A stretch of 15,097 nt of DNA, from the IMG/VR virus record IMGVR_UViG_2671180979_000021. One strand, written 5' to 3'. The notes under the pieces were generated by a model that saw only the letters and a list, made by a program, of their open reading frames with translations, ran no database searches and was not told where the DNA came from. This document shows positions 4,746 to 10,009 of this stretch, one piece after another. A program made the position numbers and the translations under genes. Source of the stretch: a virus. Its lineage: Duplodnaviria; Heunggongvirae; Uroviricota; Caudoviricetes. Numbering within the stretch: position 1 is the first letter of the stretch; each line of letters opens with the position of its first letter.

Positions 4746-5239
4746 TAAGCCCCCACGTAATTCCCTGACAGATACCACTCTTCACCTGATGCAGCGCGCT
4801 TGCTGCTTTTCCGTAAGCACCGCTCACGACGTGCCAGAAAATTGTTTCGTTCTGGCTGGGAGTGGCTTTCACGGAATGCCGCCATCCACACGGTTGCAGC
4901 ACGACGAAATAAGCCCCTGGACTCCAGTTCTTCCGCCTGGCGGGCCAGGCACAAAATCACCCGCGGGTCGTTAGTGCCGACATAGAAATTGCGCACAGGT
5001 CTGGTTTCACGAACTGGTTGCCGTTCCGCCTCCGGCGATATCTTTGTCTGGCGCGGGAAATGTCTGCGTGCATCCCCTTCACAACGGTGAGCCACACGCC
5101 CACTCTGACGTAACTTGCTTGCTGACTGCAGAACGCGCTGCCGTGAGTAACCTGTAAAAGCATCCGCAATGTCTCCGGAAGTACACCCCGGATGGGCTTC
5201 AATGAATTTCTGAACGTCATTCAAAAGACTCATGCTCAC
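4745..5239 (-). CDS. Hypothetical regulator with PerC-like C-terminal region (YfdN-like, 164 aa)
   Basis: C-terminal ARQAEELESRGLFRRAATVWMAAF...RRERCL resembles the PerC/ANR-type small activator pattern. Start overlaps the replication gene stop (ATGA). Same position as yfdN between the methyltransferase and replication genes of CPS-53. Confidence 0.55.
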   Translation of the reverse strand: MSMSLLNDVQKFIEAHPGCTSGDIADAFTGYSRQRVLQSASKLRQSGRVAHRCEGDARRHFPRQTKISPEAERQPVRETRPVRNFYVGTNDPRVILCLARQAEELESRGLFRRAATVWMAAFRESHSQPERNNFLARRERCLRKSSKRAASGEEWYLSGNYVGA

Positions 5240-6177
5240 CCCCTGAATCCTGCCGGGATCTGGCTGTAGTCCACGTTGTCGTAACTGGCTTTGAAGTACG
5301 GGTCCTCGCGTTTTTCGGTGTACGTGCTGACGGACGGCGATAAGCGCAGGGAAAGCTCATCCCATTTTTCCCGCAGCTTCGACGGGCTGAGCACGTTACG
5401 GCACCAGAACGGATCGCGACTGACGCGGCTGTACATCTCGCAGATTTGTTTATGAGTATGACCATCCTGCACACACATCAGGCGAATTTCGTTTGCCCAG
5501 GCTGTCCAGTTCGGTTCTTTGGGACGAACCACCTCGCCGTCACATTCGGCAGCCTGCTCGTACAGGGCAATGATTTTTTTCCAGAGCCACTGTGCGCAGG
5601 TCAAATCATCCTGCGTCCCCCACTGGCGCTTTTTAGGGCTGAATACAACCGCATCAGGATGGCGAGTTAAAAAATCCTGTTCATCCGTCTGCGTGTCCGG
5701 TTGCGAAGCGTCCGGACGAGAAGGTTTTTTATCTGACGGATCATGTTTTGATTTTACTGACGGATCCCCGCCAGATTCTGACGGGTGAAAACCCGCTTTT
5801 TTACCAGATTTCGACGCATCAAATTTTGACGGGTCAGATTTTGATGCGTCAGATTTTGACGGGTCAGAATCTGACAGTTGAGAAAATGCCGCTGCCTGAA
5901 GCTTCGCAACGTTAAGCTGATAAACATTCGACGCATTGCGGTTACCCTGGCGACGCGCCTTACGCGTTAACCAGCCTTCTGCTTCCAGCCGTGCGATAGC
6001 CGTTCTGACGGTACTCATCCCCGCGCCAATCTGGCGGGCAATGGTTTCAATTGATGGCCAGCACACACCTTCGTCATTACTGAAATCAGCCAGGCGGGCC
6101 ATAATTGCCACGCTGGATAACTTCATGCCTGACGCAGCGCAACCATCCCATACATAGCCGGTTAATTTAGTGCTCAT
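5236..6177 (-). CDS. Phage replication initiation protein (O-like; N-terminal wHTH, acidic low-complexity linker, C-terminal domain)
   Basis: 313 aa. N-terminal ...SSVAIMARLADFSNDEGVCWPSIETIARQIGAGMSTVRTAIARLEAEGWL is an HTH replication-initiator pattern. The DNA iterons map onto the SDPSKSDASKSDPSKFDASKSG linker. Confidence 0.75.
   Translation of the reverse strand: MSTKLTGYVWDGCAASGMKLSSVAIMARLADFSNDEGVCWPSIETIARQIGAGMSTVRTAIARLEAEGWLTRKARRQGNRNASNVYQLNVAKLQAAAFSQLSDSDPSKSDASKSDPSKFDASKSGKKAGFHPSESGGDPSVKSKHDPSDKKPSRPDASQPDTQTDEQDFLTRHPDAVVFSPKKRQWGTQDDLTCAQWLWKKIIALYEQAAECDGEVVRPKEPNWTAWANEIRLMCVQDGHTHKQICEMYSRVSRDPFWCRNVLSPSKLREKWDELSLRLSPSVSTYTEKREDPYFKASYDNVDYSQIPAGFRG
5731..5880. repeat. 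Iteron-like direct and inverted repeats (core TGACGG(A/G)T) inside the replication gene; putative ori
   Basis: CTGACGGAT at 5733 and 5757, CTGACGGGT at 5778, TTGACGGGT at 5826 and 5855, with interleaved GACGCATC (5813) and GATGCGTC (5843). Analogous to ori-lambda iterons lying inside gene O. Confidence 0.55.
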
Positions 6178-6186
6178 GACCGACCT

Positions 6187-6525
6187 CTATTTCCCTGAAT
6201 TTACGACGAAACTGTTCGAGCGGACTGAAGCATTCATGCTCATAACCTTCGCGGAGGTAGATAACCCGTTGTGTTTCCGGCTCCCAACGAATGACTCTGA
6301 CGGGCACTCCGTAGTGATCTTTGAACCAGCGGTTAACTTGTCGCAAAGGACTGTCTCCTTCTGCCGGTTGAAATCACCCACAGCCCACTCTGCAAAGCTG
6401 TGGGTTACAATTTCCCTGTCACCTGGTACATTCACTGCATAGCAATATTCCACCTTCGCTTTTCCACCCGGAACAGGAAGCGCAATCAGTTGCGAGCGAC
6501 GGTAGTGTGTTGTTAAACTGTTCAT
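6187..6525 (-). CDS. Hypothetical protein, 112 aa (uncertain)
   Basis: ATG at 6523-6525 overlaps the stop of the upstream gene, with GGAG 10 nt upstream. However codon usage is unremarkable, a perfect 9-bp inverted repeat lies inside it, and a competing plus-strand ORF exists (6170..6442). Confidence 0.35.
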
Positions 6526-7091
6526 GCGTTAGTTTCTCCACAACCAGAAGCAATCGACGCCACGACGCCCGGAGCTGCACACTCGCGGGCGTCATTACTT
6601 TCTGAAATGCAAAAAATTTTGTAGACAAGTGCTGCATGCTCCTGCAGCTTCGAAATTGAGAGATACAGCTCGTCGTTAATTGCTGTCTTCTCATGCGGTT
6701 CCACTACACCGTCTTCGATTGCTGAACGAATCTGTTTTGAATAACTGCCGATCTGTTCAATGACTTCCAGCAGACGCTGGTTAATATCGGCGTTGTCCAC
6801 ATCCTCGACGTCAGGAAGAGACACAAAGACGCCATTTGCAGACTGCGCCACAGCATCAGCAATGAAGTGAGTGCCACCAGCACGCTGTAAAACCATTGCC
6901 CATCCCAGCGGGAAAATCTGATCGCCATCTGCACGAAGGCGGTTGAATAAAGCGTTTTCTGTTACATCGAGCCAGTCAGCCGCTTCAGCGTAACCACCCG
7001 GCAACGCCGCGATAGTTTTTCTGACAGCTTTCACGTACCACTCAGGCTGTTTTTCTATTTTCCAGTGATGCTTACCCACGATTAGCCTCAT
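6522..7091 (-). CDS. YdaT/CII-like early regulatory protein, 189 aa
   Basis: Second gene after the Cro-like gene in the leftward operon, the position occupied by cII or ydaT in lambdoid and Rac-type immunity regions. No clear SD upstream. Family assignment is by position and general resemblance only. Confidence 0.5.
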
Positions 7092-7122: not shown

Positions 7123-7323
7123 CTAATCTTTCGGATAGATATCCGGTCTTAAGTCAGATTTCGTAATTGCACCTGACGTGCATTGCTCAAGTTTTTTAGC
7201 CAGCACAAAACTGGCTTTTTTATAGCCATTGAAAACCAGCCGTAAGTAGCCAGGTGTTGAGCCAACTTTTCCGGCCAACTCGCCCTGCTGTTCTTTGGTT
7301 AAAGAGTCCCAATACGCTTTCAT
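7123..7323 (-). CDS. Cro/YdaS-like HTH protein, 66 aa
   Basis: ATG at 7321-7323 with GGAGGT upstream. Sequence MKAYWDSLTKEQQGELAGKVGSTPGYLRLVFNG...TKSDLRPDIYP matches the YdaS/Cro-like family pattern (C-terminal DLRPDI). Divergent from the repressor gene. The track ORF extends further upstream without support. Confidence 0.75.
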   Translation of the reverse strand: MKAYWDSLTKEQQGELAGKVGSTPGYLRLVFNGYKKASFVLAKKLEQCTSGAITKSDLRPDIYPKD

Positions 7324-7325
7324 AC

Positions 7326-7398
7326 AATATGTACCTCCGGTGTACATATTACATGATTGGAATGAACCTTCAAGATACTTGTACCTTAACGGTACAAG
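7326..7398. promoter_or_regulatory. Divergent immunity control region with two 17-bp operators of form TGTAC-N7-GTACA
   Basis: O1 at 7330-7346 (TGTACctccggtGTACA, within the palindrome aATATGTAC...GTACATATt). O2 at 7380-7396 (TGTACcttaacgGTACA, within cTTGTACC...GGTACAAg). Both lie between the Cro-like and CI-like starts. A TTGTAC-N18-TTAATT arrangement could act as a pRM-like promoter for a near-leaderless repressor mRNA. Confidence 0.6.
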
Positions 7399-7413: not shown

Positions 7414-8088
7414 ATGAAAACAATCCATGACATCCGGCGGTCTAACGCCAGAAAACTGAGAGATGGTGTTGGCGGGAATTCTTCCTTTGCCACTATGATT
7501 GATCGCGAGCCAACCCAGACCAGCAGGTTTATGGGAGATGGTGCTACTAAAAATATCGGTGACAGCATGGCACGACACATCGAAAAATGTTTCGACCTAC
7601 CTGTCGGATGGCTCGATCAAGAACACCAGACAACGAACATCACAAAAAAACCTGATGTTTCAATCACTAATAAACAAATCACATTAGTCCCTGTCATATC
7701 ATGGGTACAGGCCGGAGCATGGAAAGAAGTTGGATATTCTGAGGTTGATTTGAGCACAGCAGAAACTTACCCCTGCCCTGTACCCTGTGGCGAAATGACT
7801 TATATCTTGCGGGTGATTGGTGATTCAATGATTGATGAGTACCGCCCTGGAGACATGATTTTTGTTGATCCCGAAGTCCCTGCCTGCCACGGTGACGACG
7901 TTATTGCATTGATGCACGATACAGGCGAAACCACCTTCAAGCGATTGATAGAAGATGGAACACAGCGTTATCTCAAAGCATTAAACCCAAACTGGCCTGA
8001 GCCTTACATTAAGATTAACGGTAATTGCTCTATAATTGGTACAGTGATTTTCTCGGGAAAACCAAGAAGATACACAATAAAGGCCTAA
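7414..8088 (+). CDS. CI-like prophage repressor (N-terminal HTH, C-terminal S24 LexA-type peptidase)
   Basis: 224 aa. C-terminal catalytic Ser (IGDSMIDEY) and Lys (TTFKRL) spaced as in S24 peptidases. Divergent from the Cro-like gene, with operators in the intergenic region. Confidence 0.85.
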   Translation: MKTIHDIRRSNARKLRDGVGGNSSFATMIDREPTQTSRFMGDGATKNIGDSMARHIEKCFDLPVGWLDQEHQTTNITKKPDVSITNKQITLVPVISWVQAGAWKEVGYSEVDLSTAETYPCPVPCGEMTYILRVIGDSMIDEYRPGDMIFVDPEVPACHGDDVIALMHDTGETTFKRLIEDGTQRYLKALNPNWPEPYIKINGNCSIIGTVIFSGKPRRYTIKA

Positions 8089-8100
8089 TCAATATTTATG

Positions 8101-8123
8101 AACCTGCTTCGGCAGGTTTTTTT
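8101..8123 (+). terminator. Rho-independent terminator downstream of the repressor gene
   Basis: AACCTGC-ttcg-GCAGGTT followed by TTTTTTT (8117-8123), 13 nt after the repressor stop codon. Confidence 0.75.
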
Positions 8124-8127
8124 ATAC

Positions 8128-8156
8128 TTGACAATGTACCCATGAGATACATAATG
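8128..8156 (+). promoter_or_regulatory. Sigma70 promoter (pL-like) with repressor operator O3 in the spacer
   Basis: TTGACA at 8128-8133, 17-bp spacer, ATAATG at 8151-8156. The spacer contains TGTACccatgagATACA (8135-8151), a one-mismatch copy of the TGTAC-N7-GTACA operator. Confidence 0.7.
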
Positions 8157-8573
8157 TATCCAAAAGAAACATGAGGCAGGCAAGATTCAAACAAAATTTG
8201 GTTGTAACACGGCGTATGGCACATGCGTCGTTAGCGGTCTGGGGACGTTAAAGGGGACAATCCACTTCTTGCTCGGGCAAACAAACCAGGTAGCCGGAAT
8301 GTGCAAGTCAATGATGATGCTGATAAGACGCCTAACCAGCGTGGCGATCCGGTTTGACGCCTGGGAAGAGACCAGGGTGCAACGATGAGGGCATTTATAG
8401 AGCCGCGACAAAGTGTGGTGCCGTAACTGGCTAAGTGCTCTCAGCGTTGTGGTAATCCGCGAAATGGCGCGGCGGTAAGTATGGCGGGGTTACTCTTTCC
8501 CCGTTGAGGACACCGGATTGTCAGGTTGACCATACGCCTGAGTGACAACCCCACCACAACAGCCACTGCTTTG

Positions 8574-8619
8574 GCGGTACCAGTTTGTACACTTGCTTCC
8601 GGCTGGTACCGCTCTTTTT
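8574..8619 (+). terminator. Leader hairpin plus T-run (candidate attenuator or terminator) overlapping a boxA-like CGCTCTTTTTA
   Basis: GCGGTACC (8574-8581) pairs with GGTACCGC (8605-8612) around a 23-nt loop, followed by tcttttt. CGCTCTTTTTA (8610-8620) resembles the boxA consensus CGCTCTT(T)A. Confidence 0.35.
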
Positions 8620-8756
8620 ACAAAACAGAGAAGAGCATCACCGGACGACGGGCTCATAACCCAATCCATCCGGGCGGCTGCCACCGCAGGTGTTCTTCTC
8701 TGTTTTGTGGAGAAACCAACCGACCTTGCAGGGTCGATATGATGAGGAGCAGCAAA

Positions 8757-9119
8757 ATGGCTAGCGAACGCAGTACTGATGTGCAGGCATTTATCGGGGA
8801 GCTGGACGGCGGCGTATTTGAAACCAAAATCGGCGCAGTTCTCAGTGAAGTCGCTTCCGGTGTGATGAACACGAAAACCAAAGGTAAGGTCTCACTCAAC
8901 CTGGAAATCGAACCATTTGATGAGAACCGTGTGAAAATCAAACACAAACTCTCATATGTTCGCCCGACTAACCGCGGGAAAATTTCCGAAGAAGACACCA
9001 CCGAAACGCCGATGTATGTCAATCGCGGTGGTCGCCTGACTATTCTGCAGGAAGACCAGGGACAATTACTGACTCTTGCCGGTGAACCTGACGGAAAACT
9101 CCGCGCAGCAGGTCATTAA
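8757..9119 (+). CDS. YfdP-like hypothetical protein, 120 aa
   Basis: ATG at 8757 with GAGGAG 7 nt upstream. 120 aa, directly upstream of a YfdQ homologue as in CPS-53. The track ORF start at 8526 is unsupported. Confidence 0.65.
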   Translation: MASERSTDVQAFIGELDGGVFETKIGAVLSEVASGVMNTKTKGKVSLNLEIEPFDENRVKIKHKLSYVRPTNRGKISEEDTTETPMYVNRGGRLTILQEDQGQLLTLAGEPDGKLRAAGH

Positions 9120-9184: not shown

Positions 9185-10009
9185 ATGTCTCAGAACTTAG
9201 ACGCAACCGCAATTAATCAAATCCATGCTCTTATTTCTGCTCAGGGTGTTAATGAAATTATCAGTAATATTGGTGCCGATGCTGTGGCATTGCCTGAGAA
9301 TTTCCGCATTCATGATCTGGAAAAATTTAATTTAAATCGCTTCCGTTTCCGTGGCGCGCTTTCCACTGCCAGCATCGATGATTTTACCCGTTATTCTAAA
9401 GATCTTGCAGATGAAGGCACCCGCTGCTTTATCGATGCTGATAATATGCGTGCCGTCAGTGTGCTTAACCTGGGTACTATTGATGAACCAGGTCACGCAG
9501 ATAACACCGCCACTCTCAAACTGAAAAAGACAGCACCGTTCTCTGCTCTGTTGTCTGTTAACGGCGAGCGTAACTCCCAGAAGTCACTGGCAGAATGGAT
9601 TGAAGACTGGGCCGACTACCTTGTGGGCTTTGATGCTAATGGTGACGCCATTCAGGCAACCAAAGCGGCTGCGGCGATCCGTAAAATCACAATTGAAGCG
9701 AACCAGACCGCTGATTTTGAAGATAATGACTTCAGCGGCAAACGCTCCCTGATGGAGTCTGTCGAAGCGAAGACCAAAGACATTATGCCAGTGGCATTTG
9801 AATTTAAATGCGTTCCGTTTGAAGGTCTGAAAGAACGTCCATTTAAATTACGCCTCAGCATTATCACTGGCGATCGTCCTGTACTGGTTCTGCGCATTAT
9901 TCAGCTGGAAGCAGTGCAGGAAGAAATGGCTAACGAATTTCGTGATCTGCTTGTTGAGAAATTCAAAGACAGCAAAGTAGAAACCTTTATTGGTACTTTC
10001 ACCGCCTGA
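9185..10009 (+). CDS. yfdQ: YfdQ-family protein (DUF2303), 274 aa
   Basis: Length and sequence character match the E. coli CPS-53 YfdQ family as I recall it. RBS GAGGA upstream of the ATG. A hairpin (aaatgcccc/ggggcattt, 10022-10043) follows the stop codon. Confidence 0.75.

Follow-up and report, generated by a model that had tools for sequence, protein, structure and literature searches.

Conserved RNA units, one related to the DicF precursor, make up the untranslated early-left leader of an N-less lambdoid prophage

The cell-division small RNA (sRNA) DicF of the Qin prophage pairs with ftsZ and pykA through its seed UUUCUGGUGA and its 3′ strand, and its repression of ftsZ, xylR and pykA depends on Hfq. 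Both DicF and its 190-nucleotide (nt) precursor are already known: the dicBF transcript is converted by ribonuclease (RNase) III into a 190-nt DicF species and by RNase E into the 53-nt sRNA (PMC10448788; PMC5069750), and terminated and read-through transcripts are both seen (PMC10448788). Two further systems invite comparison with the locus described here, namely lambda nutL/N, which occupies the same position between the PL promoter and the first early-left gene, and put of HK022, an N-less lambdoid phage in which a cis-acting RNA element likewise lies in the early leader upstream of terminators. The locus is the leader at positions 8157-8756 of a 15,097-nt stretch of viral DNA (IMG/VR record IMGVR_UViG_2671180979_000021), the whole of which we call the window, and it lies between a repressor-controlled early-left promoter and the gene yfdP. 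We find that this leader is a mosaic of separately conserved RNA units, all read from the plus strand: module A, a linker hairpin, module B with a terminator hairpin, and module C. The Qin dicF locus has the same plan, with a CI/DicA-type repressor, a repressed promoter on the same strand and then a non-coding stretch with module B, a hairpin terminator beginning UUUGGCGGUAYCAGUUU and a unit closed by a long duplex, followed by the next gene. The window differs from Qin in that the 5′ seed and the 3′ strand of DicF are absent, there is no ydfABC, module A stands upstream, the unit after the terminator is module C and not the Qin unit, and the next gene is yfdP and not dicB.

The plus-strand fold of the leader is more stable than expected by chance (z = −5.5), and comparison of homologs reveals compensatory base changes in modules A and C and, more weakly, in module B. 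The long structured untranslated leader envisaged in an earlier note on this DNA is thereby borne out, with three domains that carry such changes and a fold below chance energy. Sensitive blastn searches of phage genomes located the pieces of the leader separately in P1/P7, phiV10-like, SPN1S, Klebsiella, SfV and ST64B phages, each unit recurring in other combinations, and leaders of the same operon type appear as differing mixtures drawn from one library of units. Those of ST64B and SfV hold module C together with the unit found after DicF in Qin and before tciA in P7, that of phiNP holds another P7 unit, a hairpin and module C, and Kp4866 and mEp390 have module A-like copies. Of 5426 complete E. 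coli genomes, 4730 have parts of the leader, which, with the exception of the 53-nt DicF, are either unannotated or labelled as ‘hypothetical proteins’ and are absent from Rfam. The Rfam scan suggested in the earlier note returned no relevant family, whether at the gathering score or at E ≤ 10, for the whole window and its sub-regions, and no curated Rfam 15 family matches the window at the gathering score. At the Qin, P7 and phiV10-like loci, the only Rfam matches are the Qin DicF (76.7 bits) and the transfer RNAs (tRNAs) of P7 and the phiV10-like phage, and neither ARAGORN nor the Rfam tRNA model found a tRNA or transfer-messenger RNA in the window.

The unit that ties this leader to DicF is module B (8446-8560), a three-way-junction RNA in the RNAalifold consensus. 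Its closing stem (8446-8453 / 8553-8560) surrounds helices at 8457-8461 / 8468-8472, 8474-8476 / 8512-8514, 8486-8489 / 8499-8502 and 8515-8526 / 8536-8551, with a possible loop contact between GUAUGG (8479-8484) and CCAUAC (8530-8535). Across 22 sequences, RNAalifold recovers the closing stem, three junction helices and a long hairpin, and eight pairs are changed on both sides. A search of complete E. coli genomes placed module B in the Qin prophage, between ydfC and dicB, and its identity to the Qin sequence that immediately precedes DicF is about 92%. Because a distance of 190 nt counted back from the Qin DicF terminator ends at the 5′ base of module B, where the Qin linker-type hairpin has its foot, we take the 190-nt species to consist of module B plus DicF. 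Module B is then the homolog of the 5′ domain of that species, and the sRNA-type element proposed in the earlier note has a counterpart here, since module B and its terminator together match the 190-nt species in position and sequence. A T-run terminator follows module B in 116 of 116 classifiable copies; the DicF seed is present in 80 of these and missing from 36, and 22 have the A+B+C architecture of the window.

Two minor observations concern module B. The 3′ strand of its closing stem, just before the terminator hairpin, contains CACAACA (8557-8563), which equals the GcvB R1 target consensus; the anti-sRNA AgvB mimics this GcvB R1 seed target (PMC4104026), and the partner strand GUUGUGG resembles the GcvB seed itself, which may be coincidence. 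Separately, seven related IMG/VR loci (L202, L174, L143, L225, L212, L132 and L178) share only AAGGTTGACCATACGCC with module B, within sequence that is otherwise different, and the similarity could be due to chance or mark a distant relative of the hairpin-loop motif.

Directly 3′ of module B, in the place of DicF, lies a terminator hairpin (8573-8619) that folds into a 13-bp stem (8573-8585 / 8601-8613) followed by U8615-8619. The hairpin and T-run that the earlier note placed at 8574-8619 are therefore real, although its stem of 8 bp becomes one of 13 bp in the fold. Alignment with DicF variants shows that the hairpin shares the UUUGGCGGUAYCAGUUU opening with DicF. In the window, ...CACAACAGCCACUGC precedes UUUGGCGG, the 3′ strand is unlike that of DicF and the UUUCUGGUGA seed is missing; the Rfam DicF model RF00039 (threshold 48 bits) has no match in the window at its gathering score. 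The hairpin sits where DicF does, directly behind module B in a repressor-controlled early operon, and ends as an intrinsic terminator. It is a positional homolog of DicF and not a member of the curated family. Among homologous loci this slot (8561-8619) is occupied by classic DicF, by a short-hairpin DicF and by at least five other variants with different spacers. When DicF and the window hairpin were compared with the ftsZ leader in ViennaRNA duplexfold, shuffled controls gave equal scores. A conserved terminator scaffold with a variable 5′ seed, as in the slot after module B, is also a feature of the AgvB/AsxR family (PMC4104026), but those two sRNAs are encoded in the late region, 3′ of PR′, and have no sequence relation to the slot. 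AgvB/AsxR and the Pas prophage sRNAs were rejected on account of their late-region location, and the two positions examined for EcOnc sRNAs in strain Sakai are late-region as well.

The unit behind the Qin DicF gave a side observation. Located between DicF and dicB (L130, 4196-4335), it has AATTTTGTGATG...CATCACAAAATT as its closing sequences, and conserved counterparts occur ahead of tciA/terB in P7 (L004, 1552-1680) and in the leaders of ST64B and SfV. The long duplex that closes it begins only a few bases past the DicF T-run, and an RNase III cut in this duplex could explain the published 72-nt DicF 3′ end.

Covariation is strong in module A (8199-8385), a pseudoknotted RNA domain whose structure was drawn by hand with four helices and two pseudoknot contacts and scored on 29 non-redundant homologs. 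Helix H1 (8209-8217 / 8223-8231) has the loop GGCAC, H2 (8239-8242 / 8286-8289) encloses a variable insert, H4 pairs 8328-8331 with 8339-8342, and H6 (8360-8364 / 8372-8376) has the loop GAAGAGA. The nearly invariant core GGTAGCCGGAATGTGCAAG occupies 8289-8307, and a pseudoknot joins 8334-8337 to 8351-8354. In this model 94% of the alignment cells are paired and 12 pairs are changed on both sides, values reached by none of 500 column shuffles, and partners slid out of register pair in only 24-45%. The pseudoknot itself switches between AACC/GGUU and CACC/GGUG. Because G-U pairs are frequent at fixed positions, the fold belongs to the plus strand only, which favours an RNA element over a DNA-level one. 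The segment GGAATGTGCAAG is almost invariant, and a putative closing stem as well as several candidate tertiary pairings of invariant segments fall in columns without variation. The covariation statistics are subject to the caveats stated by the tool.

Copies of module A are widespread. Searching IMG/VR with a 16-nt core pattern yielded at least 120 loci, among them 108 distinct sequences, and when an independent anchor in the 3′ half was used instead, 68 of 96 distinct sequences contained the exact 19-mer GGTAGCCGGAATGTGCAAG. Scanning genome contigs with a 16-mer gave only a rough range, Enterobacterales, as 102 of the 120 matches listed were chance and 18 true. The module recurs at 75-82% identity in three further settings: directly 3′ of tRNA-Ile and 5′ of ban in P1/P7; in the epsilon15-like phages phiV10, typing phage 10, SPN1S and PAT1 and in a Klebsiella phage, where phiV10-like phages and the Klebsiella phage have it directly 5′ of tRNA-Arg; and in the lambdoid phage mEp390, downstream of the repressor. 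A tRNA is found within 1.5 kb of the module in 45 of 128 copies, always on the same strand. No Rfam 15 model matches module A even at E ≤ 10, and the copy in the window has every helix and the exact 19-nt core, with the conserved core GGAAUGUGCAAG. We see a moderate chance that module A represents a new RNA family.

Modules A and B are joined by a linker hairpin (8379-8450), a long imperfect duplex with a branched tip whose strands pair 8379-8384 with 8445-8450 and 8386-8397 with 8432-8443. Its fold, CAACGAUGAGGGCA...UGCUCUCAGCGUUG, has an energy of −32.8 kcal/mol (z = −3.8). The CAAC..GAGRGCA...TGCTCTC..GTTG architecture of this hairpin recurs before tRNA-Arg in phiV10-like phages, where the tRNA starts exactly at the position that module B has here, behind the same linker, and again between successive units and tRNAs of the P7 ban operon. 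The analogous hairpin of Qin ends where the RNase III-made 5′ end of the 190-nt DicF maps, and the linker is a candidate RNase III site. The 3′ strand of the linker and the 5′ strand that closes module B overlap, which provides alternative pairings: GUUGUGG (8445-8453) can pair upstream with CAACG in the linker base (8379-8384) or downstream with CCACAAC (8553-8560), and RNase III cleavage of the linker would resolve this alternative.

The same RNA units, on the strand of the tRNAs, are found in the trn-tci-ban operon behind Op(ban) of P1/P7 and in the tRNA-Arg island of epsilon15-like phages. In P7, where the operon is repressor-controlled via Op(ban) as the leader in the window is by its operator, a module B homolog with a terminator comes immediately after the C1-controlled Op(ban) operator and module A right after tRNA-Ile, whereas phiV10 has module A and the linker right before tRNA-Arg. 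Unlike these arrays, the window has no tRNA, and module B takes the tRNA position. Within the C1-controlled ban operon of P7 (L004, NC_050152, 108-2785), about 2 kb of non-coding sequence is unannotated and built of units of this type; GTTGTGxx...xxCACAAC stems follow AGTGCTCTyAnCGTTGTG linkers there, interleaved with tRNA-Asn, tRNA-Thr and tRNA-Ile, and near 1366-1450 ARAGORN reports a tRNA-Ser-like gene that is absent from the annotation of the record. In epsilon15-like phages, exemplified by O157 typing phage 10 (L003, 2314-3022), an island of about 700 nt lies gene-free between the portal-side and terminase operons. Module A, the linker and tRNA-Arg lie in this island together with two terminator-like hairpins and a possible promoter that includes TTGACA, and from its sequence the island looks like a self-contained RNA operon. 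The GOLLD and ROOL RNAs are, like the units here, phage-borne, highly structured and often beside tRNA genes (PMC12286853), but they have another host range and are far larger, and Rfam gave no GOLLD or ROOL match in the window.

Module C (8620-8709) begins right after the U-tract of the terminator. A 20-bp duplex (8620-8639 / 8690-8709) closes a junction that contains the conserved CCGGACGACGGGCTCATAACCCAATCCATCCGG and a variable hairpin, and the fold of 8615-8713 reaches z = −7.95. Compensatory changes in phiNP, Kp4866, ST64B and LLS affect four positions of the duplex and the pair 8645/8672. The module is conserved in these four phages and in SfV, always abutting TTTTTACA, and in the annotated records of SfV, ST64B, phiNP and LLS it precedes yfdP, with differing terminator hairpins before it. 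Module C is an element of the yfdP 5′ untranslated region (UTR), and its duplex is probably an RNase III-type site. Between it and the yfdP ribosome-binding site, a small hairpin is predicted by folding at 8721-8736. The corresponding place holds a GGCGGTGGCAGCC-type sequence in ST64B, Kp4866 and LLS and GGCGGCGGCAGCC in phiNP, so that the sequence of the stem is completely swapped among these phages with the hairpin retained.

The explanation that we favour, and regard as fairly probable, is that the untranslated 5′ part of the early-left operon is an array of structured non-coding RNA domains that is likely to be processed and to act in trans. On this account it is most likely that derepression would soon be followed by synthesis of a processed RNA array, part of the transcription reading through into yfdP. 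Release of the operator by the repressor would let RNA polymerase start near 8162, and the nascent RNA would fold domain by domain, so that Rho would also find nowhere to load on these 600 nt of untranslated RNA. Some of the transcripts would stop at U8615-8619 as a primary RNA of about 455 nt. If processing resembles that in Qin, RNase III may then cut the linker duplex to yield a module A RNA and an RNA of about 170 nt comprising module B and the hairpin, the latter presumably protected by its own terminator stem. Read-through would continue into yfdP-yfdQ, and the 20-bp duplex of module C, as a second RNase III-type site, could part the array from the messenger RNA (mRNA). For the released RNAs we consider a trans-acting role on the host in the early lytic phase, like that of DicF, most likely, since DicF is itself a product of the homologous unit and module A is conserved even where no mRNA follows it.

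Several points weigh against this explanation. The terminator hairpin has no DicF seed, and the DicF model gave no match at E ≤ 10 on either 711 nt or 86 nt, which leaves a DicF-like trans function putative. The RNase III and RNase E steps proposed for this leader are extrapolated from Qin, and passage of RNA polymerase through the terminator at 8573-8619 is unexplained by the array model. The covariation in module B is modest and owed largely to P1-type copies. The alignments were gathered with exact-pattern anchors, so that conservation near the anchors is inflated, an effect that the second anchor controls in part. Finally, two shadow open reading frames (ORFs) of the leader, discussed below, match the PHROG families of unknown function phrog_3651 and phrog_33599.

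One alternative is that the leader acts purely in cis, the units shielding untranslated RNA from Rho and RNases and the terminator attenuating early-left expression, with no trans function and with the units spread by recombination at conserved linkers. The mosaic composition with its shuffled units, the conserved linker sequences that flank them, and the tie of module C and the small hairpin to the yfdP 5′ UTR are all in keeping with this proposal, which as a whole we nonetheless judge unlikely. Module A keeps a nearly invariant core of 12-19 nt and a pseudoknot across lambdoid, P1-like and epsilon15-like phages, even next to tRNA-Arg, where there is no downstream mRNA to protect, and this exceeds the constraint expected from passive shielding. 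Moreover, the homologous RNA of module B and DicF accumulates as a discrete species (PMC10448788).

Alternatively, module B or module A might work like put of HK022, binding the transcribing RNA polymerase so that it reads through the terminator at 8573-8619 and later ones and thereby replacing N. The appeal of this idea, which the earlier note had also raised, is that no N homolog appears among the ORFs and proteins scanned, that N was not found either by those who described the related phage LLS, who guessed at a put-like mechanism (PMC12315714), and that module B always lies just upstream of an intrinsic terminator, with genes that depend on read-through (dicB, P1 ban and yfdP) beyond it. 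The comparison with HK022 makes it improbable, however. The early region of HK022 has no similarity to the window beyond chance blastn matches, and size, architecture and distance from the transcription start all differ: put is a two-stem element, with HK022 putL at the start of the transcript (PMC9378689), whereas module B, a three-way junction of 115 nt, lies about 285 nt further on. In addition, ST64B, phiNP, LLS and SfV have different units upstream of the same terminator-module C junction, so that no single upstream element is conserved together with the terminator, and the module B of Qin belongs to a 190-nt RNA that is processed and stable (PMC10448788).

A lambda-type nut site, for which the earlier note had pointed to a boxA-like CGCTCTTTTTA at 8610-8620 and a GACGA-loop hairpin at 8641-8651, would require an N-like protein to serve it and is highly improbable. 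Although CGCTCTTTTTACAA resembles boxA and GACGA resembles a GNRA-like pentaloop, the supposed boxA coincides with the 3′ stem strand of the terminator and the U-tract, its GCTC part is not conserved, and instead of the GCUCUUUA-type string the homologs in phiNP, Kp4866, ST64B and LLS show CCGCCC, CCGACC or GGCACC. The putative boxB, a 3-bp CCG/CGG stem, is not a supported fold; covariation favours pairing of 8641-8645 with 8672-8676, within which 8645/8672 changes from A-U to G-C. In contrast to lambda, there is thus no conserved boxA, no supported boxB and no N-like protein among those scanned, a search in which the leader ORFs with YfdP and YfdQ gave no N-family match in Pfam or PHROG and other early genes, though not all ORFs, were compared with Pfam only.

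The leader is non-coding. As the earlier note had reported, about 600 nt pass without a credible ORF: every ORF at 8157-8756 is of 74 amino acids (aa) or fewer, mostly with a non-ATG start, and no leader ORF has a Pfam match. The 26-codon ORF that it singled out (8171-8251) exists, but a 1-nt indel in near-identical relatives breaks it. The two longest shadow ORFs (8490-8684, minus strand, and 8542-8742, plus strand) overlap each other on opposite strands, and in ST64B, phiNP, Kp4866 and LLS both are frameshifted or stopped, the DNA there being conserved and its substitutions free of codon-phase bias. A decayed protein gene, whether N-like or similar to the small genes ydfABC that the Qin dicBF operon holds between its promoter and the dicF region, is therefore very improbable despite the two PHROG matches, as the matching ORFs are these mutually overlapping and broken ones and the conservation pattern is that of compensatory RNA pairing, with strand-specific G-U pairs and all frames broken in homologs. 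Families phrog_3651 and phrog_33599 are probably automatic ORF calls over conserved RNA-coding DNA, and ‘hypothetical proteins’ of this shadow-ORF kind are annotated in Ayreon and mEp460. In the SfV leader of about 1070 nt (L002, 3097-3883), an SfV-specific insert replaces modules A and B and holds the annotated orf33 (98 aa) and an extra terminator.

Returning to the array of processed RNAs that we prefer, a broader proposal can be advanced tentatively: that module A and the linker-separated units of PL leaders, dicBF, the P1/P7 ban-tRNA operon and epsilon15-like phages form an undescribed class of phage structured RNA. Such units might be made as processed arrays alongside tRNAs early in infection, with DicF the best-known 3′ appendage of one unit, and module A, at about 165-190 nt, might have a trans or catalytic function of its own, for example in host takeover, anti-defence or self-processing; as a joint proposal this is possible, though doubtful. 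Neither Rfam nor the literature searched, in a search that missed several relevant papers, describes module A, module C, the conserved 5′ domain that module B represents as a recurring unit (in P1 and with seedless terminators) or the linker architecture shared with phage tRNA arrays. If the units are functional, DicF would be one variant of a larger modular RNA with a conserved 5′ domain; N-less lambdoid phages such as SfV, ST64B, LLS, cdtI and Stx2c would have an RNA-rich early-left leader with a testable role in expression; P1-like and epsilon15-like phages would carry structured RNAs interleaved with tRNAs; and phrog_3651 and phrog_33599 would be flagged as probable ORF-calling artefacts over RNA genes.

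The window holds the immunity and early region of a lambdoid prophage of the N-less SfV / cdtI / Stx2c / 2H10 type, and the region is 98-99% identical to phages 2H10, cdtI and Ayreon and to a series of Stx2c phages. As in lambda, the repressor gene, its terminator and the early-left promoter follow one another on the same strand. An S24-peptidase CI-like repressor (7414-8088, plus strand) is followed by an intrinsic terminator identified by a terminator scan (8100-8126, plus strand; stem 8100-8119, then a T-run), which carries a terminator annotation in Ayreon and SfV as well. Right behind it lies the near-consensus, repressor-controlled promoter of the earlier note (8128-8155, plus strand), which is of PL type and matches the consensus at 11 of 12 positions with TTGACA at 8128-8133, a 16-nt spacer and CATAAT at 8150-8155; the TTGACA-17-ATAATG given there is the same element read one base over. 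It is annotated as a promoter in Ayreon, and transcription probably starts at about 8162. The spacer contains an operator half-palindrome, ATGTAC-N7-ATACAT (8134-8152), which nearly repeats the perfect palindrome ATGTAC-N7-GTACAT (7329-7347) in the interval that separates the repressor gene from the cro-like gene, and the motif has 4 strand-matches in the window where 0.04 are expected. The first convincing gene of the early-left operon is indeed the one at 8757 (ATG 8757 to stop 9119, plus strand), a member of the yfdP family (phrog_204, E = 1e-49) that is annotated as yfdP in RefSeq E. coli genomes and has the Shine-Dalgarno sequence GAGGAG at 8745-8750. It is followed on the plus strand by yfdQ (DUF2303, 9185-10009) and then by YfbR-like, Ead/Ea22 and DUF551 genes, and the order of repressor, long gap and yfdP-yfdQ is common to ST64B, phiNP, LLS and SfV. 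The minus strand carries KilA-N and DUF968 genes, a helix-turn-helix replication-initiator-like gene (5236-6177), a CII-family gene (6522-7091) and the cro-like gene (7123-7323). The product of the last, in the cro position, matches Pfam YdaS_toxin just under the cut-off (25.1 vs 30 bits), a family of Cro/YdaS proteins in Rac-type prophages.

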